From a virus, in IMG/VR virus record IMGVR_UViG_3300040960_001746: a DNA stretch of 64,000 bases; one strand, given 5' to 3'. Positions 7,815 to 64,000 of this stretch are shown piece by piece; positions within the stretch are counted from its first letter, which is position 1; the number at the start of each line of letters is the position of its first letter. Under the pieces are notes generated by a model. The model had not been told where the DNA came from. It searched no databases and saw only the letters and a list, made by a program, of their open reading frames with translations. Position numbers and translations under genes: made by a program.

Positions 7815-7826
7815 TCTTTATCTGAT

Positions 7827-8303
7827 TTAGTTATTAATAAATATGTCGTCAAGTTGATAACCGCAATAATTTTTTGTATAATTTTTATCACTCAACCCCT
7901 GTTGCAAATAATCGATGATTTTAGGTATAATTTTTCTTATGTCGACATCATATCTAACATTAGGTGGGTAGTCATTACCACTAAAAATTCTTTCCGCAAC
8001 CACTCTACCTTTATACTTAATCTGTATAGAAAAGAAATCTTCATTTTCGTAAATGTCTACATTTTTTGTTTCTTCTTCAGTACTAGTAGAATAATAATTA
8101 CTATATCTTTCCATATAATCGTAGGTACGTTCTTTGAACAAATTTCTAATCATATCTGATACCCCACTAACTAGTTCCTTTATTTCATAAGATTTTAAAG
8201 ACTCTTTATTGAAATTGTTTACTGGGAAATTTCTTCCAACAATAGGGTTTCCATTAATCATAAACAGAAATTCATAAGGGTAACTTTTATACTTCTTTTT
8301 CAT
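7827..8303 (-). CDS. Hypothetical protein in replication operon
   Basis: 158-aa ORF tightly packed between exonuclease and helicase. Confidence 0.75.
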   Translation of the reverse strand: MKKKYKSYPYEFLFMINGNPIVGRNFPVNNFNKESLKSYEIKELVSGVSDMIRNLFKERTYDYMERYSNYYSTSTEEETKNVDIYENEDFFSIQIKYKGRVVAERIFSGNDYPPNVRYDVDIRKIIPKIIDYLQQGLSDKNYTKNYCGYQLDDIFINN

Positions 8304-8306
8304 ATT

Positions 8307-9350: not shown

Positions 9351-9375
9351 TCATCATTGATTAAACGTTAAACAA

Positions 9376-34204: not shown

Positions 34205-35785
34205 TTATGTTTTATGTTCATACAACCATAGTTTATTACCACAATCATATATTCTATATATTTTTCTATCGAACATAATTTGTTTTTCAGTTTTATTTTT
34301 ATCAAAACCTTCTCTAACCAACCTATTTTTTTTAAAGTTTAATCTATGATACCTCATATCATTTTTTACATACCAATAATTAGGTTTTGTTTCGTGTATA
34401 TATTTAAAACCTAAATTTTCATATAATCCACCACTAAACCATCTATTATCAGAATATGATTTTACTATTTTAGGGTTAATCTTTTTTAAGAAATACTTAA
34501 ATAATTTTGATGCCCCACCTATAACATTATAATTTATTTTATTGGAAAATCTTATTAACTCCCATTCCTCACCATTACCAATTCCATTACGTTTACCAAA
34601 AGTCATTACCGATACCAATTCATCATTGTATAACAAACCAAACTTTAATGTTGTATTTACATTACCTTGAAGATGATTTTCATCTAAAAATGTTTTACTA
34701 ATAGAAGGACTAAGTTCAACAACATCACACTTCCTACCATAAATTTTTTTATTGACAATATTAAGTCTATTTTTTAAAACAGATAAAACAATATCCTTTT
34801 TCCATAACCACTCATCTTCAAAAATATGTATTAAATCAATACCATTCTCTCTACATAGTTTTGTTTTTTCTAAATGGTAATCTTTATTAATAAAAAGTTC
34901 ATTGTGCCAATATAAACCATTAATTTCAATACCTATGTTGTGACTCGGTATAAACAAATCTATTTCTCTATTATCACCTTCTATTTTTTTATGTCTCTCA
35001 ACATCAACTCCCCACTGTGTTAATATATCATATAATTCATTTTCATATGAAGAAGATGATGACATACCAATAGGATTACAGTTTGTACATAATACATAAT
35101 TATGTTTTTTTCGTTCCCTTAATAAATTTTGGGTAATTTCATAAGAATCATTACATTTATCACAATTAATAGTTAAGGATGTTAAATCATTTGAAATATT
35201 GGTAATGTCTAACTCTTCATATCTTTCATTTATTTTTTCTTTAAGTTTTTGTCTAAACACTTCAGATTTTGAATAATTGTCTACACCATAAAGATCCATA
35301 CAAGTTTGTTTATACTTCTCAAAATTATTATATCCTATATTACCATATTTTAATAATTTAGTATGTAACATTTTTTCTTTATTATTATAATTTTCGTCAC
35401 CGTATTTTTCTTTTTTTGTATTCTTTTGTTTTTTAATGAAATCTTCAGTTTGTGTATAGTAATCTACACCATATTTTTTTTGGTTCGTATCTTTTATCCT
35501 TTTAACCATTTCAGTTTTATTACTATTGAAACAAGAAAGTGAACAAAATTCATTATACCCCCTATCTAATCTATTACTGAATTTGGTTTTTTTCCCACAA
35601 CTACAATTTGGTACTTCTGTTAGTTTATGATAATAAAACCATATCTTTTCTTTAAAGGTAGACAAGTCATAAGATGAACAATAATTTATAATCTTATTAT
35701 ATTCGTCCACATGATTTTTTGAAAACCATTTCTCATTGGTTTTATATCCTGATTTATTATCTGTAGTGAAAAAAGAAAAATCCAT
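34205..35785 (-). CDS. Hef-like free-standing homing endonuclease (Zn/KYG repeats + PD-(D/E)XK + GNAT/Mom-like C-domain), copy 1
   Basis: CSCG..FCSLSC, KKYGV repeats, EIDLFIP...IGIEINGLYWH, IHIFEDEW, ELIRF, GGASKL, RIYDCG. Confidence 0.8.
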   Translation of the reverse strand: MDFSFFTTDNKSGYKTNEKWFSKNHVDEYNKIINYCSSYDLSTFKEKIWFYYHKLTEVPNCSCGKKTKFSNRLDRGYNEFCSLSCFNSNKTEMVKRIKDTNQKKYGVDYYTQTEDFIKKQKNTKKEKYGDENYNNKEKMLHTKLLKYGNIGYNNFEKYKQTCMDLYGVDNYSKSEVFRQKLKEKINERYEELDITNISNDLTSLTINCDKCNDSYEITQNLLRERKKHNYVLCTNCNPIGMSSSSSYENELYDILTQWGVDVERHKKIEGDNREIDLFIPSHNIGIEINGLYWHNELFINKDYHLEKTKLCRENGIDLIHIFEDEWLWKKDIVLSVLKNRLNIVNKKIYGRKCDVVELSPSISKTFLDENHLQGNVNTTLKFGLLYNDELVSVMTFGKRNGIGNGEEWELIRFSNKINYNVIGGASKLFKYFLKKINPKIVKSYSDNRWFSGGLYENLGFKYIHETKPNYWYVKNDMRYHRLNFKKNRLVREGFDKNKTEKQIMFDRKIYRIYDCGNKLWLYEHKT

Positions 35786-35853
35786 ATATCTTTATTTTTT
35801 ATATAAATATACGAATTTTTTATTAGGATAAAAAGGTTATGTGAAAAAAAATT

Positions 35854-36732
35854 TTAAATTATATGTTTTTTAATTTCATCAATCACCCACTCAATATTAT
35901 TGTTGATGTCGTCTTCCCAAAACCTTAGTAAAATATAATTATTTTTTAAACACCATTCGGTTTTAATTTTATCTTTAATTAAATTATTTTTCTGATGTTC
36001 AATTACAGGTATTTTATGTTCTGTTTTTGGGTTACAGTGCCAAAAATCACCGTCAATTTCGATTAATATATTTTTTCCTTTGATTTTAAAATCGTATAAC
36101 GATTTAATTTCTCTAACGTAAAATTGTTGATAATAATCGATATTAAGATTATCCAGTAATTTACTGAAATTATTTTCTAAATTAGATATTACTGTAAATC
36201 CATTTTCTTTTATATATAAAAGTCTTTTATGACTTTGTTTTTCTTTATTCTCTTCCTTACCCCAGTATTCTCTCATACCTTCATCAAGTTTATCTAAAAC
36301 ATACTGTGGACGTTTTCTACCCTTAAGTGCCTTTGAAATTTTTTTATTCCTTTCTAAATTAGAACTTATCTTATCCCCATAATCTAACCTTTCGTCATCT
36401 TCTTTGGTTAACCCTTTATTCCATATTACAAGTTCACCTGACCCATATAACTTTCTTTGTGTATCTTTAGATTTTTTCTGTGCGTCAACATTATGCCCCC
36501 AATTATTGTTAACTCTAGACGCATGACCTCTAATATAATCTCTAAACCCTTTTTGAATTCCTAAGAATGTTGGTACCTCACCACAACCACATTTACATTC
36601 AGGTGTTTTACCTTCTAAATTATGTTTAATAAAAGTTTCTTGCGGTTTAATTTTATGTTTTTTAACATTATGAGAAGATAAACTCCATAATGTATCATAT
36701 TCCTTATCACATATTTCACATTTAAATTGCAT
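35854..36732 (-). CDS. Putative homing endonuclease: C2H2 finger + CxCGCG + NUMOD3-like + Vsr/DUF559 nuclease
   Basis: CEICD...H...H, CKCGCG, WNKGLTK, KKISKALKGR, YDF...LIEIDGDFWH, LLRFWE. Confidence 0.8.
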   Translation of the reverse strand: MQFKCEICDKEYDTLWSLSSHNVKKHKIKPQETFIKHNLEGKTPECKCGCGEVPTFLGIQKGFRDYIRGHASRVNNNWGHNVDAQKKSKDTQRKLYGSGELVIWNKGLTKEDDERLDYGDKISSNLERNKKISKALKGRKRPQYVLDKLDEGMREYWGKEENKEKQSHKRLLYIKENGFTVISNLENNFSKLLDNLNIDYYQQFYVREIKSLYDFKIKGKNILIEIDGDFWHCNPKTEHKIPVIEHQKNNLIKDKIKTEWCLKNNYILLRFWEDDINNNIEWVIDEIKKHII

Positions 36733-36739
36733 AAAAAAT

Positions 36740-36771
36740 CCCTTTTATATATAAATATATACATAAAAGGG
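36740..36771 (-). terminator. 14-bp hairpin after the tail tube gene with the late-promoter motif at its apex
   Basis: CCCTTTTATGTATA-tatt-TATATATAAAAGGG followed by ATTTTTT and the endonuclease ATG. Confidence 0.7.
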
Positions 36772-36797
36772 AAAGTCTTATATTCGATGAAGGAATC

Positions 36798-37286
36798 CTA
36801 AAATACATTTATCGCCCTATCAAACCTGAGCGTACATGTAATATCCGCCAAATCTGAAGAGGTATAATCTAATGATCCAAAATCTGCGTCATTCAATTGT
36901 GTACCTTGTAGAATCCATTTCTGAACAACAACACCTGTTGGGTCTAACATCTCTAATTCTACGTCTTTCTTATATCCCGCAGCGTAACCTTGTCTACCTG
37001 TTACTGATTCTGAGTGTAAACGTACCCATTCCATCAACGCTTGTGTTGCGGAAGGTCCAATAGGATCTCTAAATGTTACGGAAATAGATTCCCACTTAAA
37101 TCTACCAATCACATAGGTAGATGTATTTAAAAATGGAATCTCCACCTCATCACTCGTATACTTAGGTCTTGATGTTGTCGAAACCCACCATTCTTGAATC
37201 CCTAATTCATCTGGGAATCTCAAAATAAACCTATTCTTTCTTAACGGTTCGTAAGGAACAGGCATTCTCATTAATAAATCTGCCAT
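36798..37286 (-). CDS. Tail tube protein (T4 gp19-like)
   Basis: YEP.RKNRF, RP, GRFKWE.I.VTFRDPI, EW, YKKD..L.MLDP.G.VV.KW.L.G, FG.LDY. Confidence 0.93.
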   Translation of the reverse strand: MADLLMRMPVPYEPLRKNRFILRFPDELGIQEWWVSTTSRPKYTSDEVEIPFLNTSTYVIGRFKWESISVTFRDPIGPSATQALMEWVRLHSESVTGRQGYAAGYKKDVELEMLDPTGVVVQKWILQGTQLNDADFGSLDYTSSDLADITCTLRFDRAINVF

Positions 37287-37370
37287 TTTTTATAGTTTTT
37301 TAATATTTATTATTGTAAGTATCATTTTTTTTTCTTACCTTTATTAATAAATATCTTAATTTCTAAAAAA

Positions 37371-38978
37371 ATGGATTATAAAAAATTTTTTTTAACAGAT
37401 AATAAATCGGGAAATAAAACAAGAGAAGATTTTATTAAAAAAAATTATAAGGATATTTTCGATAATATTAATTTATTTGTGGAAAAAAACAAATTAAATG
37501 AAGATTTACCTTTCAAAGAAAAGGTATTTTTATTTATTCATAATATTGTAGAACAACCCAAATGTGGTAATTGTGGTAAAGAATTAAAATTTAAAAAAAG
37601 TTTAAAAGAGGGGTATGGTAGTTATTGTTCTATAAAATGTAACAATCAATCAAAAGAACAGAGAGAAAAGATAAAGAATACGTTCACAAAAAAATATGGT
37701 GGACACCCTATGAATTCTAAAAAAGTAAAAGATAAGGTTAAGAAAACAAATTTAGAAAGATATGGTGTTGATAATATGTTCAAAGACTCCAAATACATCA
37801 TAGAAAAAACTAAAGATAAATTGGGTGTTACTAATCCAAACAAGTTAGAACGTATAAAAGAAAAAAAGAGAAAAACTAATATTAGAAAATATGGGGTATC
37901 CACTAATTTAATATTAGAAAATAATAGAGAAAACAATATCTTATCAAAGTTAAAAAAATTTAATAAAAAGTATAAGTCATTAAAAATAATAAATGATAGG
38001 GGTAGTTATGTTACATTAGAATGTGATAAGTGTGAAAATAGTTATGATATCGATAGAAGTTTATTATTCTATCGTTTTGACAATAATTTAAATTGTTGTA
38101 CCATATGTAACCCTGTAAATGAATTAAGATCAATAAAGGAAAAAGAATTGTCTGATTTTATAAATGATTTAGGTTTTGATGTAACAACAAGTGATAGAGA
38201 TATATTAAATGGAAAAGAAATTGATATATTAGTTAAAGAGAAGAATATAGGTTTTGAGTTAAATGGTTTATATTATCATTGTGACTTATTCAAAGACAAA
38301 AATTATCATATTGATAAAACAAACGAGTGTAATAAAGAAGGTATACGTTTAATACATATATTTGAGGATGAATGGGACAATAAAAAAGATATTGTGAAAA
38401 GTAGAATTAAAAATCTATTGGGGTTGACAGATAATAGAATATATGGTAGAAAATGTATAATTAAAAAAGTACCTACTAAAATAAAAACTAAATTCTTAAA
38501 TGAAAATCATATACAAGGAACTGTTGGTAGTAAAATAAATTATGGTTTGTACTATGATGATGAACTTGTCTCTATAATGACATTTGGTAAAGGTCGTAAT
38601 GTTATGAATGGTTCTAACTACGAATGGGAGTTATTACGTTTTTGTAATAAAATAAACCATTCTGTTATTGGGGGTGCGTCTAAATTATTAAAACATTTTA
38701 TTAAAGAGAATAACCCAACTAATATTATTAGTTACGCTGATATAAGATGGAGTGATGGTAATCTATATAATAAATTGGGATTTGATTATAAAAACTCATC
38801 TAAACCAAACTATTACTATGTAGTTAACAAAAAAAGAGAACATAGATATAAGTTTAGAAAAGATATATTGGTTTCAGAAGGATTTGATTCAAATAAAACT
38901 GAAAAAGAAATTATGATAGAAAGAGGTTATAATAGAATATATGATTGTGGTAATTTGGTATATTCTATTTCTTTATAA
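37371..38978 (+). CDS. Hef-like free-standing homing endonuclease, copy 2 (paralogue of 34205-35785)
   Basis: Same architecture: FFLTDNKSG start, KKTNLERYGV repeats, EIDI...GFELNGLYYH, IHIFEDEW, GGASKL, RIYDCG. Confidence 0.8.
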   Translation: MDYKKFFLTDNKSGNKTREDFIKKNYKDIFDNINLFVEKNKLNEDLPFKEKVFLFIHNIVEQPKCGNCGKELKFKKSLKEGYGSYCSIKCNNQSKEQREKIKNTFTKKYGGHPMNSKKVKDKVKKTNLERYGVDNMFKDSKYIIEKTKDKLGVTNPNKLERIKEKKRKTNIRKYGVSTNLILENNRENNILSKLKKFNKKYKSLKIINDRGSYVTLECDKCENSYDIDRSLLFYRFDNNLNCCTICNPVNELRSIKEKELSDFINDLGFDVTTSDRDILNGKEIDILVKEKNIGFELNGLYYHCDLFKDKNYHIDKTNECNKEGIRLIHIFEDEWDNKKDIVKSRIKNLLGLTDNRIYGRKCIIKKVPTKIKTKFLNENHIQGTVGSKINYGLYYDDELVSIMTFGKGRNVMNGSNYEWELLRFCNKINHSVIGGASKLLKHFIKENNPTNIISYADIRWSDGNLYNKLGFDYKNSSKPNYYYVVNKKREHRYKFRKDILVSEGFDSNKTEKEIMIERGYNRIYDCGNLVYSISL

Positions 38979-39861: not shown

Positions 39862-42732
39862 TTAGATATCATCGAAAGATGCCCCAGTGTTAGTGATGTT
39901 GAACTCAATCGAAATGAATTCTAACGATCTTGTTGGTTTAATAAAGATTCTACCATTAAGTTCGTTTCTATCAATAGACTCTGGTGTGTCATCCAATACA
40001 ACTCTAAAGTCAGTTAAACCTCTCTCTTTTCTAATGTTATCCAAAATTGGGTTAACCAAACTTAAGAACTGATTTCTTACAACATCATCATTTTGTTCGA
40101 ATAACAATCTGATTGACACCGCTGAAATAAGTTTTCTCGCTTGTAACAACAATCTTCTAACACTAATTCTATTAAGTGCGGTTTCTTTAACTTGTAAAGT
40201 TTTATTACCGAAGATTACAACTCCTACATCTGAGAATGTCGCCATTGGGTTAATTCTTCCTTCGTATAAGTCATCTCTATCATCTAATTTAAGTTTCACT
40301 CTCGCTTTGATTGCGTTTGTTGTACCTCTATTTAAACCTGCCGCTGCGAACCAAGGGAACGCTACGTTATCCGTAAGGGCGATGTTTCTCATAACTTCTA
40401 ATGTAGGTGGTAACCATACATATCTGTTATTTTCTGTATCATTCATCTGTAACCATGGCCAGTATGTAGCGGAGTAGTTAGAGTCGATTCCTGAATCTTC
40501 TATAATTTCTACCGCTTCGTCTGGTGTTAACGCTAGTCCATCATCATCAGTATCAGGCGTTGTAATTACATAAAGTGAATCCGCTCTATCAACCTCTACC
40601 ATATCTACTGCGTTTTCAATCAAACTGATATTATCTCTTAAATCAATACCTGGTGTTGCGAATACATTAATGTTAACCGCTTCAGGATTGTTATAAGTGT
40701 AAATACCATCTAAGTATGCGTAGTAGTCAGAAGTGATTCCTTGATCACCTTCAGTTGTTACAAATGATGAGAATACTCCTTTTGATTCTCCAAGAGAACC
40801 TTTAGAACCTGTTTTAGTATAATTATCTGTATTAGTTCTTTGTAGTCTATACTCATCCCATCCGTCCCATCCACCGAATGATGTGAATGTGAATTTTCTT
40901 GCCGCTAACTTCTCATAAGGTCCACCTACTAATCCTGCGTCTGATGTGAACGCCGACACACCAACTTGTAGTGTAGGTACATAAGTGTTAACTCCTAAGT
41001 CAACTGACGCACCATTTGCGTTTACATCTAAGTGGAATCCATCAGTTTTACCTGTGAAAACTCCGTTGTTAACTGCGTTTTTACCTTTGTAATCGAAGAA
41101 GTCTTGATCTACTCCGATATCTGTATTTAATCCTAAATAAGTTTTTCTTAATTTAGAAGTATTAAAATCTGTGTATTCTGTTTTATATTCGATCTTAGGT
41201 GGTAATGAAGTCCTAGAACCAATGTAAGTTCTATTCAACACACCCTCAAATCCTGCAGGGAAGTGATTAACTAAATCAGGATCATCTAAATAAGAAGCTT
41301 GAGTGTCACTATCATAGAATTCAACCATAATATACTTACTTCTTAATGGATATTCACCATCGTTAGTACCTATTTTTCTTCCAATGAATCCAGTACTATT
41401 GATATCTAAATTCAACGAAGAGAATTTTTCGATTACAGATGGATTAGCATCTGAATCATTAAATTTTCTAACTAATAAATCAAATGTTTTATCATCTGGT
41501 TTAATATTGATGATAGAGAATTTAACATCTTGGTTAGCCATATTACCATCAGATATTGTAATGAATCTAAAAAGTCTTTGTAATGTTGCACCTGTACCAG
41601 TACCTTTTAATTCTGAAAGTACCCAAGGTGATGCCGCAGATTTCCATTGTTCTTTATAGTTTGATAAATATCCACTTGAATTGGCAGTTGTATCTCCTGA
41701 AATATTGTTGAAGTCTATGTCTAAACCTCTAACTTGACTTTTAGCGATTAAGTCCTCCAATACGTTAGTATAGATTTCCTCAACCCATAATTCTGTTTCT
41801 TTGTCTTGTGTTGAACTACCGAATACTCTTGGTAAGAAATTCTTTTTAGTTCTATCCATTGACACATCATAACTAAATGAGTTACCATTACTTGCAGTAC
41901 CATTAATTGTAAATGATGCCAATGCGTTAGATTTAATACTTGTTGTGTTACTCATAATTGCGTCAGTCGCACCTGTAACATCAAATACTAAAGTCTCATT
42001 TGCGTCATAATCACCTCTTGATCTCAATGTTGCAATTACACTACCATCTATATCCGTTAAACAAGTTGCGGTGTAACTAACTACCGTACCACTTGTAGTA
42101 CCAGTAACATAAACACCACTTGTTCCTGTAGTTGCGACTTCCATATCGAAAGTTGCACCACTAAAGTCACATCCTGTTTTAACATAAATTGGGTTAGTTA
42201 CTGAAATAGTTGATCCAGTATCTAATAATCCTAATGTAGATAGTGAAAATTGTCCGTCATTGTATAACGCTTCTAAGTTAGCATTGTTCCAACTTAATGC
42301 AACTGGATTACCTGTTGTTTCTGCGGTATATGTTAATAAAGGATTACTTGTGACTGTAGATGCACTACCTACAGTTGTCGGATCTTCTGCGGAATCCAAT
42401 GTGATTGCCCACGCATTACCTGCGTCATAACCAGATAAACCTAAAACTCTACTTACATATAATTGATTAGTTTGAGTTAAAAATGATTTGGCGATATAAT
42501 TTAATTCGTATTTGTGGTAACCAGTACCCTTAAACTTCTCAGGGTTTAGTCCACCAAAATAACTAATAAATTCATCGTAGTTAGAAACAAATACAGGTTC
42601 AAACGCCGGTCCTTTAGGAGTTTCACCTAATAACCCTAACGTTGTAACACCGACTTGTCTCGTTACGAATGTTAAGTCCTTTTCTGATGTGAATACACCT
42701 GGACTTACAAAAATTCTGTCTGTTGATGCCAT
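39862..42732 (-). CDS. Contractile tail sheath protein (gp18-like)
   Basis: FVSPGVFTSEKD, GPAFEP, ATYWPW, PWFAAAG.NRG, INP, GNKTLQ, LNRI.VRRL, FEQND. Confidence 0.95.
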   Translation of the reverse strand: MASTDRIFVSPGVFTSEKDLTFVTRQVGVTTLGLLGETPKGPAFEPVFVSNYDEFISYFGGLNPEKFKGTGYHKYELNYIAKSFLTQTNQLYVSRVLGLSGYDAGNAWAITLDSAEDPTTVGSASTVTSNPLLTYTAETTGNPVALSWNNANLEALYNDGQFSLSTLGLLDTGSTISVTNPIYVKTGCDFSGATFDMEVATTGTSGVYVTGTTSGTVVSYTATCLTDIDGSVIATLRSRGDYDANETLVFDVTGATDAIMSNTTSIKSNALASFTINGTASNGNSFSYDVSMDRTKKNFLPRVFGSSTQDKETELWVEEIYTNVLEDLIAKSQVRGLDIDFNNISGDTTANSSGYLSNYKEQWKSAASPWVLSELKGTGTGATLQRLFRFITISDGNMANQDVKFSIINIKPDDKTFDLLVRKFNDSDANPSVIEKFSSLNLDINSTGFIGRKIGTNDGEYPLRSKYIMVEFYDSDTQASYLDDPDLVNHFPAGFEGVLNRTYIGSRTSLPPKIEYKTEYTDFNTSKLRKTYLGLNTDIGVDQDFFDYKGKNAVNNGVFTGKTDGFHLDVNANGASVDLGVNTYVPTLQVGVSAFTSDAGLVGGPYEKLAARKFTFTSFGGWDGWDEYRLQRTNTDNYTKTGSKGSLGESKGVFSSFVTTEGDQGITSDYYAYLDGIYTYNNPEAVNINVFATPGIDLRDNISLIENAVDMVEVDRADSLYVITTPDTDDDGLALTPDEAVEIIEDSGIDSNYSATYWPWLQMNDTENNRYVWLPPTLEVMRNIALTDNVAFPWFAAAGLNRGTTNAIKARVKLKLDDRDDLYEGRINPMATFSDVGVVIFGNKTLQVKETALNRISVRRLLLQARKLISAVSIRLLFEQNDDVVRNQFLSLVNPILDNIRKERGLTDFRVVLDDTPESIDRNELNGRIFIKPTRSLEFISIEFNITNTGASFDDI

Positions 42733-49857: not shown

Positions 49858-52710
49858 ATGTTGGATGTTAAGGATATTAAAAATCTTGACAGTGAAGATT
49901 TACTCATGACATATGAGGGTAAAAACCCTTATATAAAGTACATGCGCAAAAAAAAGGAAACTGAAAAAAATTATTTTCTTACTAATAATCAGTCAAATTA
50001 TGTAAAAAATTATTTTACCTTCGAACCAAAGGTATTAAATAAAGTTATAGAACTGACTAATTATTTTTCTGAAGAATTAAAAGAAGAACATAAATTAAAA
50101 ATAACACCTAAAAAAATATTTGTGGAAACTTTATTGGCGGAATCGGACAAAGCGATACACGTTATATGTAAGTTATATAAAAACCAAAAGGACGTTAAAT
50201 TATTATGGATACCTAAAACACAAATATTAGATGATATTCATTATGAAGATATCGATGTAGATATAGACTTTGACAAATACTCTAAATTAGATAAAAGAGG
50301 ATGGAGGGCGTTTAAACATCAAGAAGATGGTATTAAGTTCTTAATGAAGAACAAAAAGTGTATTTTGGCGGACGATATGGGTTTAGGTAAGAGGATTGCT
50401 AATGATGTCCCTGTATTAACACCTAACGGTTGGGTGTTGCATGGTTCTTTAAAAGTGGGTGATTATGTTATAGGGTCAAATGGTAAGCCAACCAAAGTAT
50501 TAGCAACATATCCAAACCAATCAGATGATTATTATAATATAACCTTTACTGATGGTACTGTAGTTGAGTCTTGTGGTGAACATTTGTGGGCAGTACAAAC
50601 TACTAACCATAGAAAAAGAGGTAGTGGATTTAAAGTTAAACCACTTAAAGAGTTAAAAAATGATTTAACTTATGGTAAATATGGTAACACTAAATGGTTT
50701 ATCCCAATGGTTAATACTGTAGAATTTAATAAAAAAGATGTTGGTGTTGATCCTTATCTATTAGGTTGTTTATTGGGAGATGGTGGTATTAGTCAAAGAC
50801 ACATAACATTATCAACCGTAGACGTAGAATTATTAAATGAGTGTAGTGAAAGGTTACCTGTAGATTATTTTTTCGATAAAGTGAAGGGTAAGAATGATTA
50901 TTTATTAAAACAACAAATAACAGAACGAACTGTTGGTACTAAACATAGTGTTATTGAACATTTAAAGAATTATAATTTAATGGGTACTAGATCAGATGAT
51001 AAATTTATACCTGAAGATTACAAATATAACACTAAAGAGATTAGATTAGAAATTTTACAAGGTTTATTAGATACTGACGGATATTGTTCAAAAAAAGACG
51101 GTACAATACAATTTTATTCTGTATCAAAGCAACTTTCAGATGACGTAAAAGAATTGGTTCAGTCGTTTGGTGGAGTGGCTAGAGAAAGTACTAAAATAGG
51201 TAAATATAAAAAACCTAATGGTGAAGTGGTTCACTGTAAAATCTGTTATATATTAACTATTAATCTACCTAAAGGTATTATCCCTTTTAAATTACAACGT
51301 AAGATTAATAATATGAAATCTGATAGAAAGTATCTACCATATAGGGGTATAAAATCTATAGAGTATTCTAGAACAACTGCAGGACAATGTATATCAGTAC
51401 AAGCAGAAGATAATCTTTATGTGATAGATAAATATGTTGTTACACATAATACCTACCAGTCTATAGTTGCTGCGTTAGAAAGTGGTGCGGAAAGAGTTTT
51501 AATAATATGTCCTTCATCACTCAAAATAAATTGGATGAGAGAAGTACAAAATTTTTGTGATGACGTATCAATAATTACAGGGTCTTATTGGGATCCTGCG
51601 AGATTCACAATCATTAACTATGACATACTCAAAAATTTTCACACAGTTAAAGAAAAAAATAAAGAATACGAAGAGTGGGAATTGAGAAGAGAAATTGCAG
51701 ACTTCAATCCCGATCTATTAATATTAGATGAAGCACATTATGTTAAAAATCACAAATCTAAAAGAGGTGCAATATTAAAAGATTTATCTAAGAATTTTTC
51801 ATGTGAAAGAGTATGGTTATTAACTGGTACACCTATCGCAAATAGACCTATGGATTACTATAATTTATTATCTATTATTGATTCACCAATAACAAACAAT
51901 TGGGTTCACTACGCTAAAACTTATTGTGAAGGTAAAAGATTTAGAAAGGGTGGTAAATATGTATGGGTTACTACAGGGGCATCTAATTTAGATGAGTTAG
52001 CATCTAAAACAAAAAGAACAATATTAAGAAGAAAAAAAGAAGATGTCTTAGATTTACCCGAAAAATTGATTACCCCAGTATATTTAGAATTAGAAAATGT
52101 AGATGGTTATAAATCTGTATGGGAAGATTACTTAGCGAAAAGAAAGTTAGAAGGTAAAAAAGGTAATCCTGCGAGAGACTTAGTAGAGATGACATTACTT
52201 AGAACTTTTATTGCGATGGAAACTGTACCCTATTCTATTGAAAAGGCGGAAGAGGCGTTAGAGTTAAATAAAAAAGTTATTATATTTTGTAACTTTAATG
52301 ATGAGATGGACGCATTTAACAGACACTTCGGTAATAAGGCGGTATGCGTAAGAGGTGGTATGTCAGATAAACAAAAACAATTATCAGTAGATAGATTTCA
52401 AGAAGATGATAGTTGTAAGGTATTTGTAGGACAAATTAAGGCAGCAGGTGTGGGATTAACACTAACTAAGGCGGAGATTGTTATTATGAACTCTTTAGAT
52501 TGGGTTCCCGGAAATCACGAACAAGCGGAAGATCGTGCATATAGAATAGGACAAAAGGAAACTGTTAATATTTATTATATGTTAATGGATGATACTATTG
52601 ATACTTTAGTATGGGATATACTAAATGAAAAGAAAAAGATTATTGGAACCATTATGGGTGAAGATGATATAATAAATGAATTTATAAATAAAATAGAAGA
52701 TGAAAGTTAA
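49858..52710 (+). CDS. SNF2-family (SMARCAL1/HARP-like) helicase containing an intein
   Basis: LADDMGLGK[intein]T, IICPSSLK.NW, INYD, LDEAH, LTGTP, GLTLT.A, QAEDRAYRIGQ. Confidence 0.92.
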   Translation: MLDVKDIKNLDSEDLLMTYEGKNPYIKYMRKKKETEKNYFLTNNQSNYVKNYFTFEPKVLNKVIELTNYFSEELKEEHKLKITPKKIFVETLLAESDKAIHVICKLYKNQKDVKLLWIPKTQILDDIHYEDIDVDIDFDKYSKLDKRGWRAFKHQEDGIKFLMKNKKCILADDMGLGKRIANDVPVLTPNGWVLHGSLKVGDYVIGSNGKPTKVLATYPNQSDDYYNITFTDGTVVESCGEHLWAVQTTNHRKRGSGFKVKPLKELKNDLTYGKYGNTKWFIPMVNTVEFNKKDVGVDPYLLGCLLGDGGISQRHITLSTVDVELLNECSERLPVDYFFDKVKGKNDYLLKQQITERTVGTKHSVIEHLKNYNLMGTRSDDKFIPEDYKYNTKEIRLEILQGLLDTDGYCSKKDGTIQFYSVSKQLSDDVKELVQSFGGVARESTKIGKYKKPNGEVVHCKICYILTINLPKGIIPFKLQRKINNMKSDRKYLPYRGIKSIEYSRTTAGQCISVQAEDNLYVIDKYVVTHNTYQSIVAALESGAERVLIICPSSLKINWMREVQNFCDDVSIITGSYWDPARFTIINYDILKNFHTVKEKNKEYEEWELRREIADFNPDLLILDEAHYVKNHKSKRGAILKDLSKNFSCERVWLLTGTPIANRPMDYYNLLSIIDSPITNNWVHYAKTYCEGKRFRKGGKYVWVTTGASNLDELASKTKRTILRRKKEDVLDLPEKLITPVYLELENVDGYKSVWEDYLAKRKLEGKKGNPARDLVEMTLLRTFIAMETVPYSIEKAEEALELNKKVIIFCNFNDEMDAFNRHFGNKAVCVRGGMSDKQKQLSVDRFQEDDSCKVFVGQIKAAGVGLTLTKAEIVIMNSLDWVPGNHEQAEDRAYRIGQKETVNIYYMLMDDTIDTLVWDILNEKKKIIGTIMGEDDIINEFINKIEDES
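50392..51450 (+). mobile_element. Class 3 intein (353 aa) with LAGLIDADG homing endonuclease, inserted in the Walker A GK/T
   Basis: RIANDVPVLTPNGW...CGEHLW...YLLGCLLGDG...LQGLLDTDG...GQCISV...VVTHN/T; removal restores GLGKT. Confidence 0.92.
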
Positions 52711-58090: not shown

Positions 58091-58121
58091 CAAATATAAT
58101 AAAAATATTCTGTTTTATCAA
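58091..58121 (-). promoter_or_regulatory. Bacteroidota sigmaA-type promoter for DNA polymerase
   Basis: Minus strand TTG-N20-TATATTTG. Confidence 0.7.
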
Positions 58122-58486
58122 TTATTTAGGACATTAATATAAAGTTCATCTCTAATTGGTGCAATTAGAGTACCTGTCCCATCTAAAAACGTTATGGTAA
58201 AATAACCATTATATCTACCTACTCTACTAGTTTGTAGTTCTGTAAATTGGTAAGATATTATATATGTTGGTGTTTCTGTATTTTCGCAGTTATTAGAAAT
58301 TATCATCTCTAAATTCGCCGCGGAACATGCAATTCTTTTAACTTTTGTGTCTACATCATACATAGTAAAAGTTATAGTAGCATTTTGTATTTTTTCGTAA
58401 AAATTACGAAAATCATTTCTACCATCATTGACTAATTCCATTTTTAACTTTGGTAATGTACTATTTTTGTTTATAAAAAATTCCAT
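58118..58486 (-). CDS. BppU-N-like small virion protein
   Basis: F.I.KN.TLP.L...L, A.ITF.M, Y.F....T...G.Y.G.F.I.F, P....L.I.V pattern; late motif at 58499. Confidence 0.65.
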   Translation of the reverse strand: MEFFINKNSTLPKLKMELVNDGRNDFRNFYEKIQNATITFTMYDVDTKVKRIACSAANLEMIISNNCENTETPTYIISYQFTELQTSRVGRYNGYFTITFLDGTGTLIAPIRDELYINVLNN

Positions 58487-58552
58487 GTGTATTTTATTTA
58501 TAAATATATTAAAATATTAAATATTTCTCAGACTTATTTAATATTTATAGAT

Positions 58553-59116
58553 ATGTCCGATAAACTAAAAGAATTAGAAATTAAAAAATTATTTAAGGAA
58601 TATGATTTTCTCCTTGTAGAAGATGATTATAAAAAAGAATTGATTGATATCAATAAAGGTGAATTTTTGAAAAAAATTAATGAAAAGAGAAATGAATTAG
58701 GGATACCACCTAAAATTGATTCCCCATTAACTAAAGAAGAAAAAGAAGTTAAAAAAGAAGAAAAAAAAATAGAGGTTAATCGTGAAACTAAGAAAAAAAT
58801 AAAGGACTTATATAGGAAAATAGTAAAAATCACACACCCTGATAAAACCAACTCTGAGAAATTAGTTAATCTTTATATTAAAGCAAAAAAATATTATGAA
58901 CAAAATAATTTATTAGAGTTGTATATGATATGTATTGATTTAAATATTATTATAGATTTAAGTGATTTTAAAATGGAAGAATTAATAAAATCAGTAGAGA
59001 AAAAAAGGGTGGAGTTAGAAAATATAGAAAGTTCCTATTTATGGTTATGGGTACATTCGAATACTGAAGAAGAAAAAGAAAAAATAATAAATTTATTTAT
59101 TGAACAAAATAGTTGA
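58553..59116 (+). CDS. J-domain (DnaJ-like) co-chaperone; start revised to 58553
   Basis: IKDLYRKIVKITHPDK with HPD motif; ATATTTATA at 58541 precedes MSDKLKE. Confidence 0.8.
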   Translation: MSDKLKELEIKKLFKEYDFLLVEDDYKKELIDINKGEFLKKINEKRNELGIPPKIDSPLTKEEKEVKKEEKKIEVNRETKKKIKDLYRKIVKITHPDKTNSEKLVNLYIKAKKYYEQNNLLELYMICIDLNIIIDLSDFKMEELIKSVEKKRVELENIESSYLWLWVHSNTEEEKEKIINLFIEQNS

Positions 59117-59117
59117 T

Positions 59118-60263
59118 ATGAAAAAAATAGGTATTACTTTAAATATAATTAATAGTTTATTCTCCAACGGGATAAACCAAAACGGAGTTTTTCTGTCAAG
59201 ACTATTAAAAAAGTGTGGTTATGATGTAGATATAATTTGTGGCAATGAGAGTACATTAGATAAAACTTCTTTGTTTGAAGACGATATCAATTTGATTACC
59301 TTAAAAAATTCTTATGATAATAAGTATGATTTATTAATACAACTAGGATTTACTATAGAGAAACGTTTTTTTGAAAAATGGAAAGAGAAAAATCCTGAAT
59401 TAAAAATGGTTGCATATGAATGTGGTAATAAGTTAATTGTTAATATGGAAAGAATATTATTTAATGGTGAAGATACTTCTAAAAACTTTCAAGATAGGGA
59501 GAATGATCAAATACCTGATCAGGTATGGTATGTACCACAACAAGAAAACACAAACCATAACTTTTTCCAATATTATAGTAAACAAGAAAAAGTTACGGTT
59601 GTACCTTTTGTTTGGGAACCTTTTCTAGTAGAAAAATTGTTTTCAGTTTCAGAAAAAAATGTTTACGAACCAAAAGAAATACGTAATTGTGGTGTTATGG
59701 AACCTAATATGTCTGTTATGAAAAACTCATTTTACCCTACCATCATTTTAGAGAAAAACCAAAAGACAAATCCTTTAGATCATATTTATCTTTTTGGTAC
59801 CGATAAAGTCAAAGACAAAAAACCTTTCATAGACTTCATTCTTTCAACAGAACTCTATAAAGATAAAAGATTGAGTGTGGAGAGTAGGTATAAGGTATCT
59901 AAAGTTTTAACAGAACACGCAGATTTTGTTCTTAGTTGGCAGTGGGAAAATAATTTAAATTATTTATGGTTAGAAATCGCTTGGATGGGTTACCCTATTG
60001 TTCACAATGGTTCTTTATGTAAAGACGTAGGTTACTATTACGATGGATTTGATGCGGACATGGCAGTCAAAAAAATAGGTGAGGTAATTTCTAAACATAA
60101 TGAAAATCACAAAATATATTTAGATAAAAACAGAGAGATAATAAAAAGATACACTAGTGAAAATGATGTTTTAGTAAAACAATACACAGAATTAATAAAT
60201 AATGTTTTAGAAAATAGATTTGAAAGGAAATCTTATAACTGGAAAGAAAATAAAATATATTAA
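59118..60263 (+). CDS. DUF2827-like putative GT-B glycosyltransferase, paralogue 1; start revised to 59118
   Basis: KIGIT..SLFSNGINQN, VPFVW.P, GVMEPN.SVMK, ADFVLSWQWENNLNYLWLEIAWMGYPIVHN..CKDVGYYY. Confidence 0.8.
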   Translation: MKKIGITLNIINSLFSNGINQNGVFLSRLLKKCGYDVDIICGNESTLDKTSLFEDDINLITLKNSYDNKYDLLIQLGFTIEKRFFEKWKEKNPELKMVAYECGNKLIVNMERILFNGEDTSKNFQDRENDQIPDQVWYVPQQENTNHNFFQYYSKQEKVTVVPFVWEPFLVEKLFSVSEKNVYEPKEIRNCGVMEPNMSVMKNSFYPTIILEKNQKTNPLDHIYLFGTDKVKDKKPFIDFILSTELYKDKRLSVESRYKVSKVLTEHADFVLSWQWENNLNYLWLEIAWMGYPIVHNGSLCKDVGYYYDGFDADMAVKKIGEVISKHNENHKIYLDKNREIIKRYTSENDVLVKQYTELINNVLENRFERKSYNWKENKIY

Positions 60264-60265
60264 AA

Positions 60266-61453
60266 ATGGAAAATTTAAAAATAGGTATAACATTAGCATT
60301 ATCATCTAATAATGAGTCTATATGGACAAATGGGATTAAACAGAATGTATTAATGTTAGCACATTTATTGAAAAATTCTGATAAAAATTATGAAGTATGT
60401 ATTTTAAATATATTTGATGTCGATTTTACTGAAAAACCATCTTACTTAAAAGATTTAGATATACACTTCTTCAATGACAAATTTATGGAAATGGATTTGA
60501 TTATTTTAATGGGTGCACAAGTTCAGGAGTCACAGTTAAAAAAGTTTAGAGAAAATGATGACAAAAAAGTAGTATCTTATAAATGTGGTAACAATTATGT
60601 TATTGCTATGGAAGAAATCATATTTAAAGGTAGTGAAGATGGTGGTGTTTATGAGCAAGAAATAGATGAGTTGTGGTATATTCCACAACAAGATGAAGTA
60701 AACAAAGGATTTTACCCTATTCTTCATAAAACTAATTCAATAATAGTTCCTTTTATTTGGCATCAAAAATTTATACAAGAAAGTATTGTTAATATCCATA
60801 ATGGTTTTATAAAAGGTAGTTATAAAAAAGATTGGATGTATGATAACAAAAAGGAGAAAAAAATTATTGGTGTTATGGAACCAAACATCAACATAGTTAA
60901 ATTTGGTTTATTACCTGCGATGTTAGTTGAAGAGTGTTATAGGGGTGAGGTTGGTAAAAAATATATAGAGGACTTAAGAATAACTAATACTCAAAAAATA
61001 AAAGATAATAAAAAATTTATTTCGTTTATAAAAACATTTGATTTATTTAAAGATAAAAAATTATCCGCAGAAAGTAGGTACCAAACGGCATTTATTTTAA
61101 CTCAGTACTTAGACGTGGTTGTTTCACACCAAATATTAAACCCACTTAATTATCTTTATTTAGATGTTGCCTATATGGGATATCCGATACTACATAATGC
61201 TGAATTATGTAAAGATTTAGGTTATTATTATGAGGGATCAGATTTACTTAAAGGCTCTAAAGTTTTAGAGGACATATTATTAAATCATGATAAAAATATT
61301 AATGAATATAATGAAAGAAATAACATAGTTTTAAATAGATATCATGCCGATAATAAAGAATTGATTAGTAATTATGATATGTTAATTAAAAATCTATGGG
61401 AAAAAGGTAATAACCATTTAATATATAACCCCAAAACGAATTTATTACAATAG
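60266..61453 (+). CDS. DUF2827-like putative GT-B glycosyltransferase, paralogue 2
   Basis: KIGIT..SIWTNGIKQN, YKCGN, VPFIW, GVMEPN.NIVK, DVVVSHQILNPLNYLYLDVAYMGYPILHN..CKDLGYYY. Confidence 0.8.
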   Translation: MENLKIGITLALSSNNESIWTNGIKQNVLMLAHLLKNSDKNYEVCILNIFDVDFTEKPSYLKDLDIHFFNDKFMEMDLIILMGAQVQESQLKKFRENDDKKVVSYKCGNNYVIAMEEIIFKGSEDGGVYEQEIDELWYIPQQDEVNKGFYPILHKTNSIIVPFIWHQKFIQESIVNIHNGFIKGSYKKDWMYDNKKEKKIIGVMEPNINIVKFGLLPAMLVEECYRGEVGKKYIEDLRITNTQKIKDNKKFISFIKTFDLFKDKKLSAESRYQTAFILTQYLDVVVSHQILNPLNYLYLDVAYMGYPILHNAELCKDLGYYYEGSDLLKGSKVLEDILLNHDKNINEYNERNNIVLNRYHADNKELISNYDMLIKNLWEKGNNHLIYNPKTNLLQ

Positions 61454-61473
61454 TAATAAATTATCGAAAAAGG

Positions 61474-61501
61474 GAAAGGGGGTCATTTACCCCCTTTCTT
61501 T
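61474..61501. terminator. Terminator between convergent GT operon and fibre gene (possibly bidirectional)
   Basis: GAAAGGGGGT-cattt-ACCCCCTTTC perfect 10-bp stem. Confidence 0.85.
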
Positions 61502-61547
61502 GTTATCACAATAAAGTGATTAAACAGTAGTACTAACTAACTCTATC

Positions 61548-63626
61548 TTAGAAAGATGGATTAGTTACTGTACCGTCAACACCATAGAACTCAACTCTAC
61601 TACCATTTGCTGGTCTTCGAACAAAAGTGTAGGTTCCGTTTGAGTGACTATAATCTTCACCTTCTCTTTGTTTTAGACCATTAAGGAATAACATGTGTGT
61701 ACCATAAAGTACGTCAGAGTCAAATTCTTTGTTAGTTCCGTCTGCAGTGTAGAATTCCATCTCACCTGGCATAACATTACCAACATAAGTAACAATCTGA
61801 TTGTCTTGACTATTAAGTGCAGTAAGAACTTCACTGAATGAATCAATAGAAGTTACATCAGTATTAGAGATGATGTCATCAACTCTACTATCTAAAGATG
61901 CGTCACCAGCTAATCTAGCGGATTCTTCTGTACTTAATCTAGTCTCTAATGAAGTATCTGCTGCAGCTCTAGCACTTTCTTCATCAGATACTCGAGAATC
62001 AATAGAAGTTACATCTCCATTAGTTGCTAAAATTTCCGCTGCTAATGCATTAGATAATACAGTGTCAACTGAATCCCTAGCACGTTCTTCCTCAGATATT
62101 CTTGTAGTCAATGAAGCGTTACTTCCTTGTGATCTACTTTCTTCTGCAGATATCCTACTATCAATAGATTCGTTAGCAGTATTGATATCTGTAGAGATTT
62201 TAGTTGCTAATGAAGCATCACCCGCAATTCTATCACTTTCTTCAGTAAATACTCGTGTATCGATAGAAGTTACGTCTGCGTTAGTTGCTGAGATTTCTGC
62301 GTTTAAGTTAAGAACTACAGATGCTACATCGTTATCATTTTCAGCATCAACTGCATTAATTAAAGATACGATTTCTGCAAATGAATCTTTATCTGCATCA
62401 GAAGCCAATAAAATCGCATCGATTTTATCTTCTTCTGTACTTAATCTAGTCTCTAATGAACTATCTGCCGCAGTTCTAGCACTTTCTTCAGTAGATACTC
62501 GTGTATCGATAGAAGTTACATCTGTATTAGTTGCTAAAATTTCCGCAGCTAATGCATTAGATAATACAGTGTCAACTGAAGCTCTAACAGATTCTTCTGC
62601 ATCAACTCGTGTATCGATAGAAGTTACATCTCCATTAGTTGCTAAAATTTCCGCTGCTAATGCATTAGATAATACAGTGTCAACTGAAGCTCTAGCACTT
62701 TCTTCAGTAGATAAATCACCCTCAACCGTAGACACACGAGAATCAATAGATGTGTTAGCAGTATTGATATCTGTAGAGATTTTAGTTGCTAATGAAGCAT
62801 CACCCGCAATTCTAGCACTTTCTTCAGTAGATAAATCACCCTCAACACCAGACACTCTAGTATCGATAGAAGTTACGTCACCCTCTAAATTAGTGATATC
62901 TGCATCAGTTGCTGCGATTTCCACAGACAAAGCGTCAGATAATACTGCATCCGCTGAAGCTCTTGCCACTAATTCAGTAGATAACGCAGCATCATTTGAT
63001 GTTTCATAATCCGATAAATCACCTTCAACACCAGATACTCTAGTATCGATAGAATTTACGTCTGAGTTAGTTGCTGAGATTTCTGCGTTTAGGTTTGAGA
63101 TTACATTCGCAACATCGTTATCATTTTCAGTATCTACTGCGTTAATTAAAGATACGATTTCTGCAAATGAATCTTTATCTGCATCAGCAGAGTCTAAGAT
63201 AGCGTCAATTCTGTCTTTCTCAGTATTGATTTTAGAGTTCAATGAACTATCTGCTGCAGCTCTAGCATCTTCTTCTTCACCAACTCGTGTATTGATAGAA
63301 GTTACGTCTGAGTTAGTTGCAGAAATTTCTGCAGCCAACCCATCCTCAACATCGTTCACACGTGTATTGATAGATGTGTTAGCAGTATTGATGTCTGTAG
63401 AGATTTTAGTCTCTAATGATTCATCACCCGCAATTCTAGCACTTTCTTCAGTACTGATGTCTGTAGCGATTTTAGTTTCTAATGAATCGTCTGCACTTGT
63501 TAATACCGATAAATCTGCAACCAATTCAGAAATATCAGATTTTGTTAAGCCTTCTGGATTTGTTATTAATGCGTTATCTAAAATCAAATCCGACTGATCA
63601 TTTAATACTATTTTAGTATTTGCCAT
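61548..63626 (-). CDS. Ser/Thr-rich repetitive coiled-coil fibre (whisker/head or tail fibre)
   Basis: Repeats STEESARIAGDASL, DVTSIDTRV, DKDSFAEIVSLINAVD x2; C-terminal LFLNGLKQREGEDY...TF...P..GS.V virion domain. Confidence 0.8.
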   Translation of the reverse strand: MANTKIVLNDQSDLILDNALITNPEGLTKSDISELVADLSVLTSADDSLETKIATDISTEESARIAGDESLETKISTDINTANTSINTRVNDVEDGLAAEISATNSDVTSINTRVGEEEDARAAADSSLNSKINTEKDRIDAILDSADADKDSFAEIVSLINAVDTENDNDVANVISNLNAEISATNSDVNSIDTRVSGVEGDLSDYETSNDAALSTELVARASADAVLSDALSVEIAATDADITNLEGDVTSIDTRVSGVEGDLSTEESARIAGDASLATKISTDINTANTSIDSRVSTVEGDLSTEESARASVDTVLSNALAAEILATNGDVTSIDTRVDAEESVRASVDTVLSNALAAEILATNTDVTSIDTRVSTEESARTAADSSLETRLSTEEDKIDAILLASDADKDSFAEIVSLINAVDAENDNDVASVVLNLNAEISATNADVTSIDTRVFTEESDRIAGDASLATKISTDINTANESIDSRISAEESRSQGSNASLTTRISEEERARDSVDTVLSNALAAEILATNGDVTSIDSRVSDEESARAAADTSLETRLSTEESARLAGDASLDSRVDDIISNTDVTSIDSFSEVLTALNSQDNQIVTYVGNVMPGEMEFYTADGTNKEFDSDVLYGTHMLFLNGLKQREGEDYSHSNGTYTFVRRPANGSRVEFYGVDGTVTNPSF
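61880..63490. repeat. Dispersed in-frame direct repeats within the fibre gene
   Basis: Blocks of 50-60 bp recur, e.g. ctccattagttgctaaaatttccgctgctaatgcattagataatacagtgtcaactgaa near 62015 and 62630. Confidence 0.85.
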
Positions 63627-63698: not shown

Positions 63699-63831
63699 TA
63701 TAAATAGAAATATAAATAAGGTAATTAAAGATACCAAGAAATGGTATTCTTTTTTAATATAAATAGTTAATATAAATAGTTAATTTTAATATACATAAAG
63801 TAAACCTAAAAAGGTTACTTAAATATAAATA
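63699..63831 (-). promoter_or_regulatory. Cluster of five TATTTATA (late-motif) copies upstream of the fibre gene
   Basis: TATAAATA on + at 63699, 63711, 63758, 63771, 63824; includes 13-bp tandem TAATATAAATAGT x2. Confidence 0.6.
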
Positions 63832-63999: not shown

Positions 64000-64000
64000 G

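Follow-up and report, generated by a model that had tools for sequence, protein, structure and literature searches.

The window analysed here is a stretch of 64,000 nucleotides (nt) from the IMG/VR virus record IMGVR_UViG_3300040960_001746, representing 64 kb of a contig of about 120 kb. It is myovirus DNA, with a tail sheath gene at 39862-42732, and it carries T4-type replication genes for a class II ribonucleotide reductase, a DnaB-like helicase, gp32, a RecA/UvsX-like protein and a family-B polymerase. The phage is an uncultured aquatic T4-like myovirus with a GC content of about 29%, whose host probably belongs to aquatic Bacteroidota. Here, we focused on a block of four genes at 58553-63626, which encode a J-domain protein, two paralogous DUF2827 glycosyltransferases (GTs), named GTa and GTb, and a fibre, and which an earlier note, made from the sequence alone, had read as a candidate system for glycosylation of the phage's own fibre. 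About 200 related loci were compared in the whole analysis. The features of the block are as follows.

58495-58502 and 58542-58549, plus strand: two copies of the upstream motif TATTTATA, ahead of the J gene
58548-58552, no strand: left edge of the inserted cassette, at the end of nucleotide homology with the relatives L060 and L062
58553-59116, plus strand: J-domain protein, 187 amino acids (aa), with HPD at residues 95-97
59118-60263, plus strand: GTa, DUF2827 GT-B paralogue, 381 aa, starting 1 nt past the J stop
60266-61453, plus strand: GTb, DUF2827 GT-B protein, 395 aa, starting 2 nt past the GTa stop
61474-61498, no strand: GC-rich hairpin with a 10-12 bp stem, a probable bidirectional terminator between the convergent stops
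61548-63626, minus strand: fibre, 692 aa, with an N-terminal anchor, a helical rod and a C-terminal beta-domain
63699-63831, minus strand: five tandem TATTTATA copies and two small hairpins in the leader of the fibre gene (about 230 nt)

All four open reading frames (ORFs) were found at the positions given in the earlier note, and the J, GTa and GTb genes are tightly coupled, with gaps of 1 and 2 nt. This operon is convergent with the gene of the 692-aa fibre, and 94 nt separate the two stop codons. The hairpin in this interval has the score of a terminator whichever strand is read, and folding of 61440-61560 gives a minimum free energy of -36.3 kcal/mol and a z-score of -5.7 against shuffles, which is consistent with a probable terminator common to the operon and the fibre gene. 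Upstream of the J gene, the first copy of TATTTATA (58495-58502) is part of the palindrome TATTTATAAATA, which also faces the divergent gene 58118-58486. Of the 34 copies found in the window, 17 are located, when read in gene orientation, no more than 100 nt upstream of a gene start, a space that makes up only about 3.4% of the sequence; the overall enrichment is weak (34 copies against 24.5 expected). Further copies precede a baseplate-like gene and an adaptor-like gene. The 'late motif' of the earlier note was thus borne out as a recurring upstream element, its 'late' class being putative, and the T4 late-promoter orientation, TATAAATA, was rejected as the relevant reading since only 6 of 34 copies stand upstream, against 17 of 34 for TATTTATA. 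Because TATTTATA precedes both the J gene and the fibre gene, the two units probably share one promoter class. The fibre leader carries far more copies than are seen ahead of any other gene in the window, two of its five falling within the 100-nt counting window, and this array hints at very strong or staged expression of the fibre.

We then compared the block with its counterparts in relatives sampled via the neighbouring family-B polymerase gene (polB), which made the sampling independent of the GT. The 94% nucleotide identity shared with L060 and L062, the closest relatives, covers polB and orf122 and breaks off at 58547, which is 6 nt ahead of the J start codon; in these two relatives a tail-fibre-type gene abuts orf122 in place of the J gene. 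None of the 19 polB-sampled relatives (68-96% polB identity) carried a J, DUF2827 or fibre homologue in the flank, and the polB identity of DUF2827-bearing phages is far lower, at about 48%. In whole-record searches run with positive controls, five long DUF2827-negative relatives (127-254 kb) were devoid of the GT, the J gene and the fibre alike. All five DUF2827-positive records contained the GT (one copy in four of them and two in G010, the record of L046) and one J gene, and the fibre was present in four of the five, always within 8 kb of the GT; two of these records represent genomes that are 96-100% complete (281 and 380 kb) and have one GT copy each. Since the 94%-identical flanks lose homology 6 nt before the J start, and relatives exist without all three genes, the J-DUF2827-fibre block is an optional insertion. 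As a side observation, the polymerase itself is 1286-1304 aa long in L060 (10001-13915), L062, L064, L005 (1458-5318) and L027 (87-3968), compared with 995 aa here; this greater length, found even at 96% identity, suggests an intein or another insert.

The two paralogous proteins of about 390 aa that the earlier note had described, 381 and 395 aa long, are both full-length members of DUF2827 (PF10933). GTa and GTb matched the profile with E-values of 2.7e-75 and 5.3e-95 and scores of 253.9 and 318.8 bits, against a cut-off of 25 bits, and the matches span profile positions 1-2 to 361-362 of 362. Conservation was counted in an alignment of 98 DUF2827 sequences, in which 34 columns are at least 85% conserved; GTb keeps 34 of these and GTa 33, with a single change of Y to W. 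In GTb numbering, the conserved residues are E205-P-N207, K212, R271, N292, N295, H310-N311 and G319-YYY, and the most conserved block is formed by N292, N295, H310, N311 and G319-Y322. The C-terminal motifs quoted in the earlier note are real and lie within this block. At the place of the EX7E motif of GT4 enzymes, judged by sequence pattern, stands N292-x7-[D/E]300, with N in 92 and an acidic residue in all 98 sequences, and these positions may correspond to EX7E.

An AlphaFold2 model of GTb built from the 98-sequence alignment reached a mean predicted local distance difference test (pLDDT) of 97.1 and a predicted template-modelling score of 0.94. Foldseek matched this model first to BshA (3.3e-10, probability 1.00), and then to PimB', MshA, WaaG and HepE; the top structural matches were all GT4-type retaining transferases. 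In VIA-align, an independent aligner, BshA gave a Z of 24.7 over 325 aligned residues with a root-mean-square deviation of 4.0, and Z values were 20.8 for the T4 alpha-glucosyltransferase (AGT), 18.5 for SdgB, 17.5 for GtfA, 16.1 for the T4 beta-glucosyltransferase (BGT) and 15.0 for Gtf3. The structural matches therefore mix acceptor types, including lipid and sugar transferases, protein O-transferases (SdgB, GtfA, Gtf3 and OGT) and the T4 DNA glucosyltransferases. With high confidence, the model places GTb in the GT4-like GT-B glycosyltransferase fold, with its two Rossmann-like domains and the cleft between them. The fold proposed in the earlier note thus holds for GTb by structure model and Foldseek, and GTa would share it by virtue of its 35% identity to GTb. 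The tie to GT4 is structural only: no GT was matched by sequence when the DUF2827 family profile was searched against solved structures, and neither Glycos_transf_1 (PF00534) nor DUF1975 matched GTa or GTb, the only related match being a weak one of GTa to Glyco_trans_4_2 (E 0.027). Natural fusions join DUF2827 to GT9, PLOD-type GT, DXD GT-A, GT25 and methyltransferase domains, and one protein carries three DUF2827 domains; these fusions assign DUF2827 to glycan-building pathways. The family-wide scan found 281 viral stretches, from which 90 viral loci were analysed. A tblastn search of 50,697 deposited phage records gave no DUF2827 match.

The fold raises the question of phage DNA as the acceptor, glycosylated as a means of restriction evasion. 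T4 AGT and BGT, which act on hydroxymethylcytosine, have the same fold as GTb (Z 20.8 and 16.1), and about 0.5 kb separates the operon from polB. DNA hypermodification by viral GTs is described as widespread (Pyle 2024, cited in PMC12619734). Nevertheless, we regard this explanation as highly improbable: relatives whose polB is 94-96% identical and whose flanks are identical do not have the genes at all, which is hard to square with genome-wide base modification; the genes co-vary with the fibre and not with nucleotide-metabolism genes; their bacterial homologues flank adhesins; and no hydroxymethylase was found among the scanned ORFs of the window, a scan that left several small ORFs aside and covered 64 kb of about 120 kb.

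Linkage between the GT and the fibre was followed across lineages. The J gene adjoins the GT gene at all 29 GTb-type viral loci, and the fibre gene lies 0-6.4 kb away at 24 of them, the other five loci ending short of that distance. At 35-40% identity to GTb, DUF2827 genes were still found 38-124 nt from a homologue of the fibre rod (350-690 residues aligned, E 1e-24 to 1e-69). The rod homologue beside these distant DUF2827 genes has another N-terminal anchor (MAQIRSKQI...) and another C-terminal domain, it lies on the same strand as the GT, in the opposite order to that seen here, and often no J gene is nearby. After dereplication at 70% GT identity, a rod homologue lay within 10 kb of DUF2827 in 17 of the 19 well-flanked clusters (at least 7 kb on both sides), and a J-protein gene in 12 of the 19. 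In the reverse direction, starting from 42 fibre loci with enough flank, DUF2827 was found at 32 and the J-protein at 33. The survey of DUF2827 neighbourhoods proposed by the earlier note thus revealed co-occurrence with the rod of this fibre in phages and with YadA-type adhesins in bacteria. Such neighbourhoods argue strongly for a functional linkage of the GT and the fibre. Because the rod stays a neighbour while the anchor, the end domain, the gene order and the J-protein differ, the link appears to be to the rod and to go beyond inherited gene order.

A parallel arrangement is found in bacteria, whose homologues (about 33% identity) occur as tandem DUF2827 triplets. At four loci (L034, L036, L041 and L042) the triplet adjoins a YadA-type trimeric autotransporter adhesin with ESPR, head, stalk and anchor domains. 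In the literature searched, a 2026 preprint on bacterial adhesins (10.64898/2026.01.22.700529) makes the sole functional proposal for DUF2827: it reports 327 homologues beside trimeric autotransporter adhesins in Burkholderia, Veillonellales and Pasteurellales, and proposes, without going beyond a proposal, that DUF2827 glycosylates the adhesin; the placement at the four loci above reproduces its observation. The bacterial arrays resemble the phage block in the enzyme family, in the tandem paralogues and in the placement of cytoplasmic enzymes beside a long, repetitive and presumably trimeric surface fibre, and on both sides the function is only proposed. They differ in that the bacterial protein is a secreted adhesin, whereas the phage fibre is a virion part without YadA domains or a signal peptide region; in that bacteria have three orthologous subfamilies, while phages usually have one copy and this phage has two; and in that the phage module adds a J-protein, none of which was matched in the bacterial loci compared with the J-protein of the window.

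The fibre was described in the earlier note as built of TS/ST-rich repeats. It is indeed repetitive, with about ten degenerate units around TSIDTRV...EESAR...D.SL, but only moderately rich in Ser and Thr (13.3% and 10.3%, together 24%), alongside 12% Ala, 11.6% Asp and 8.7% Glu. The N-terminal anchor, of 28 residues, is conserved; orthologues agree over the first 26 residues and the last 60 or so, and their rods range from about 650 to more than 1500 residues. Predicted secondary structure comprises a helix from 29 to 618 (about 590 residues with four short breaks) and a beta-domain from 624 to 681, and the rod is presumably a coiled coil. This predicted architecture is like that of the T4 fibritin (wac) whiskers, with a short anchor at the N-terminus, a long, segmented rod of helix and a small domain at the C-terminus; the fibre showed no detectable sequence similarity in the 50,697 phage records, where only marginal matches appeared and none to an annotated fibritin, whisker or fibre. 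Its N-terminal 50 residues retrieved nothing meaningful from the same records, and a resemblance of the N-terminus to T4 fibritin, unconfirmed by search, was dropped. The fibre matched none of the YadA_* head, stalk and anchor profiles nor ESPR, and has no signal peptide region. Two further comparisons were set aside: a search against solved structures gave one weak and uninformative coiled-coil match (8qox, E 0.003), and a protein-atlas comparison returned viral clusters only, its row at 0.79 (24% of members with YadA_stalk) being too weak to use. Directly upstream of the fibre gene in L001-L029 there is nearly always a protein of 76-91 aa with the motif 'TSDLYLTAYLK', and then one of about 160 aa that starts with '...GG(V/I)G(I/V)MGFISPM'. 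Both small proteins look like fixed members of the cassette, and the window shows only the 3' end of the upstream ORF before position 64000.

The presence of two paralogues had led to the suggestion that GTa and GTb resemble GtfA/GtfB, a catalytic and an accessory subunit acting on a serine-rich repeat. In the O-glycosylation of streptococcal and staphylococcal adhesins, GtfA/GtfB act on serine-rich repeat proteins and SdgA/SdgB on SD repeats. These systems are similar to the present block in having dedicated cytoplasmic GT-B enzymes beside a repetitive surface protein, and GtfA, Gtf3 and SdgB are structural neighbours of GTb. They belong to another sequence family, though; DUF2827 has no degenerate partner subunit and its paired state is not conserved, and the rod here is helical with 13% Ser, as against a repeat that is mostly Ser there. 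Copy number points the same way: the 29 GTb-type viral loci all have a single DUF2827 gene, and at least two copies occur in only 9 of the 90 viral loci. In nearly all related phages the single copy is an orthologue of GTb, and most of them lack GTa.

In a quick IQ-TREE maximum-likelihood run with support from the Shimodaira-Hasegawa-like approximate likelihood ratio test only, GTa and GTb fell into two separate old clades (support 99 each), both nested with subfamily 1 of the three orthologous subfamilies that form the bacterial triplets. GTa as a recent tandem duplicate of GTb was rejected in view of these separate clades. The difference between QWEN and QILN, which the earlier note had taken for an active-site difference, did not hold up: the position is variable, with Glu in only 52 of the 98 family sequences, and Leu is a clade trait of all GTb orthologues. 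As a marker of catalytic versus accessory subunits it was rejected, since the position varies and both copies keep the conserved residues.

We weighed a GtfA/GtfB-like heterodimer of GTa and GTb that would act on a serine-rich repeat held unfolded by the J-protein and DnaK. The two genes are adjacent and tightly coupled, GtfA (Z 17.5) and Gtf3 (Z 15.0) are among the structural matches, and the order J-GTa-GTb-fibre recurs in one other phage, L045, at about 60% identity. Even so, we consider a heterodimer unlikely and the GtfA/GtfB analogy unsuccessful, given that the invariant or near-invariant residues are kept in both copies, that most fibre-bearing phages manage with one DUF2827 protein, that the paralogues come from two old clades, and that the fibre is 13% Ser and predicted to be helical; the three orthologous subfamilies of the bacterial arrays suggest sequential steps instead. 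GTa as a non-catalytic partner is accordingly unlikely by its sequence, which rather suggests an additional enzyme of older origin, catalytically intact and probably active. Given its old separate clade and intact conserved residues, the likeliest role for GTa is the addition of a second sugar or action at another site.

The start of the J-protein was set by orthologue alignment, which favours ATG 58553 over an upstream GTG at 58487. From the N-terminus, the protein consists of a conserved helix, a low-complexity linker, the J-domain and, at the C-terminal end, a conserved segment with an invariant Trp. Searched singly, it matched Pfam DnaJ below the curated cut-off (E 0.0017, 18.8 bits against 27.8). 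HPD, K85, R89 and Y109 (alignment numbering; basic helix II and the Tyr of helix III) are invariant across 21 orthologues, and a profile of these orthologues matched J-domains only among solved structures, with Ydj1 as the best match (2e-5), plus auxilin. The J-domain identity given in the earlier note is thus confirmed. The conserved N-terminal helix and the C-terminal segment are candidates for client binding. A phage precedent is the J-domain protein Rki of RB43, which binds DnaK and stabilises sigma-32 (Perrody et al. 2012, PMC3486835, as cited in PMC12619734). By description only, the two are alike as small J-domain proteins of T4-like phages with a presumed route through host DnaK; they differ in that Rki is a host-takeover factor with no reported link to a fibre or GT, while the J-protein here is translationally coupled to the GT and co-varies with the fibre. 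The role proposed in the earlier note, in which the J-protein keeps the substrate accessible via DnaK, may apply.

A J-protein neighbour also suggests a folding function, and phage fibres often rely on dedicated chaperones encoded beside them. Phage DUF2827 proteins might then have lost transferase activity and, with the J-protein, serve as fibre-specific assembly chaperones or structural parts. We judge this to be decidedly improbable, as the residues conserved in the phage copies are those conserved in the bacterial and the fused multi-GT members, and fusion to bona fide GT domains argues for catalysis.

Two observations on the J family stand apart from these considerations. In the distant phage of L046 (6508-7707, minus strand), an orthologue of the J-protein carries an additional C-terminal domain of about 200 aa, fused to it, in which a P-loop-like 'GHPRTGTG' motif is found; this domain is possibly sulfotransferase-like and may tie the J module physically to a tailoring enzyme. 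L030 (CAYGYN010000024.1, 5.3 kb), binned as a Woesearchaeota metagenome-assembled genome, encodes a J-protein and a DUF2827 protein 62% identical to GTb in the phage gene order, and is most likely a mis-binned phage fragment.

Given that the block is inserted and lost as a unit, that the linkage to the rod persists down to 35% identity, that bacterial triplets stand beside adhesins, that both proteins look like intact enzymes, that relatives surround the core with variable sugar-tailoring genes, and that the operon and the fibre gene have an upstream motif and a probable terminator in common, we propose glycosylation of the fibre by the DUF2827 enzymes as the best explanation, one to which we would give about an even chance. 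In such a system, the convergent unit would make a J-domain co-chaperone and two cytoplasmic, nucleotide-sugar-dependent DUF2827 enzymes of the GT-B type, and these would glycosylate the fibre rod while it is still in the host cytoplasm, either ahead of assembly or in the course of it. Exposed Ser and Thr residues of the rod repeats would be the probable acceptor sites. GTb would act as the conserved core enzyme, with GTa adding the second sugar or serving the other site, and the J-protein would probably bring in host DnaK, with the long and slowly folding rod, or else the enzymes, as its client. The N-terminal peptide of the fibre is presumed to dock it on the virion. A broader reading, in which DUF2827 is a new family of protein O-glycosyltransferases for long helical (coiled-coil) surface fibres (bacterial adhesins, phage fibres and giant-virus fibrils), with the J-protein of phages presenting the rod by way of host Hsp70 and a two-step or two-site glycan built by two ancient paralogues in this phage, is possible but clearly more tentative.

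The main rival keeps the enzymes as active GTs and gives them another acceptor. This could be another virion protein, for example the Ser/Thr/Gly/Asn-rich 'MATFITSK...' fibre-like proteins, which sit between the GT and the fibre in relatives, or the glycans of the host envelope, whose modification might for example block superinfection or free progeny from debris. We regard this alternative as doubtful, though one to be taken seriously. The genes around the J-DUF2827 core in relatives encode DXD GT-A, GT1 and GT25 enzymes, a PF11397 GlcNAc-transferase, two sulfotransferases, a carbamoyltransferase and HtrL_YibB, so that enzymes of the lipopolysaccharide (LPS) or capsule type (GT25, sulfotransferases, carbamoyltransferase and HtrL_YibB) are packed into the interval together with other fibre-like genes, and the structural matches comprise LPS and lipid transferases alongside protein transferases. 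On the other hand, neither the 'MATFITSK' proteins nor the tailoring enzymes are constant, being variable or missing altogether, with none between GTb and the fibre here, whereas a rod homologue remains the constant neighbour across GT lineages down to 35% identity. Close relatives lose the GT, the J gene and the fibre together, and the bacterial homologues flank fibrous adhesins rather than LPS clusters.

Several points count against fibre glycosylation. The pattern of a conserved, initiating core enzyme with variable tailoring genes is that of a glycan assembly line, which speaks for the proposal but fits a host glycan equally well, and linkage of the genes also fits other roles, with another virion protein or the host envelope as the target. 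The predicted fold points to a nucleotide-sugar transferase and leaves the acceptor unspecified, because the matches mix acceptor types and AGT is about as good a match as SdgB or GtfA. Two well-flanked DUF2827 clusters, L075 and L111, have no such fibre nearby, which also favours another acceptor; both come from phages of much higher GC. Ten of the 42 fibre loci show no DUF2827 within 10 kb; at two of these ten, L141 and L142, the GT is about 13 kb off, just beyond the flank. The J family occurs also in 640-kb megaphages with no DUF2827 within 7 kb, and is for this reason not exclusive to the module, and many distant DUF2827-fibre pairs have no J gene nearby. The monomer model of the fibre has low confidence (pLDDT 62), as expected when one chain of an oligomer is modelled, and the oligomeric state of the fibre and the exposure of its Ser and Thr residues are for that reason assumptions. 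Finally, the literature searched, in which just two papers mention DUF2827, gave no biochemical or mass-spectrometric evidence for any protein of the family. As a separate observation at L111, two paralogous proteins of about 453 aa (7248-9980) lie directly upstream of the GT and are preceded by a 2188-aa protein; they may represent a different acceptor system.

Glycosylation of the fibre would have a precedent in mycobacteriophages, whose GTs have been shown to decorate their own virion proteins at C-terminal extensions of capsid and tail-tube subunits (Freeman et al. 2023, PMC10527164, as cited in PMC12619734); in the papers considered here, virion glycosylation with bench support is cited only for these phages. 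Both cases involve phage-encoded GTs for the phage's own virion proteins, shown there and proposed here, but the candidate acceptor here is a fibre rod, the enzymes are DUF2827 proteins and a J-protein is attached. If the proposal is true, phage virion glycosylation would reach beyond the capsids and tail tubes of mycobacteriophages, into aquatic T4-like and jumbo phages and onto a different structural target, and the uncharacterised DUF2827 would become a dedicated fibre-glycosylating enzyme common to bacterial adhesins and virus fibres. Fibre, GT and J-protein would form a simple three-gene system, and the coupling of the J gene would be a rare instance in which a virus enlists Hsp70 for one particular step of modification or assembly. 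A sugar coat on the fibre could affect host recognition, protease resistance, stickiness towards particles or grazers, and immune recognition. What this window newly contributes is the two-paralogue form, an insertion boundary at base level against near-identical relatives, and controlled tests of presence/absence and of distant lineages; the clean presence/absence polymorphism between near-identical phages amounts to a natural experiment.

Two other regions of the window are recorded here. At 34205-38978, a cluster of probable selfish endonuclease genes breaks up the minus-strand structural block. It consists of an ORF with DUF7487 and REase_MTES_1575 (34205-35785, minus strand), one with DUF559 (35854-36732, minus strand), and one with DUF7487 and a Mom-family match just under the cut-off (37371-38978, plus strand; E 5.9e-6), the last being a possible DNA-modification enzyme. 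At 49858-52710 (plus strand), a 950-aa protein matched the PHROG terminase large subunit and primase families over residues 115-533 and, strongly, a DNA helicase over residues 522-936; this is probably a primase-helicase, with a P-loop domain that cross-matches the terminase models.

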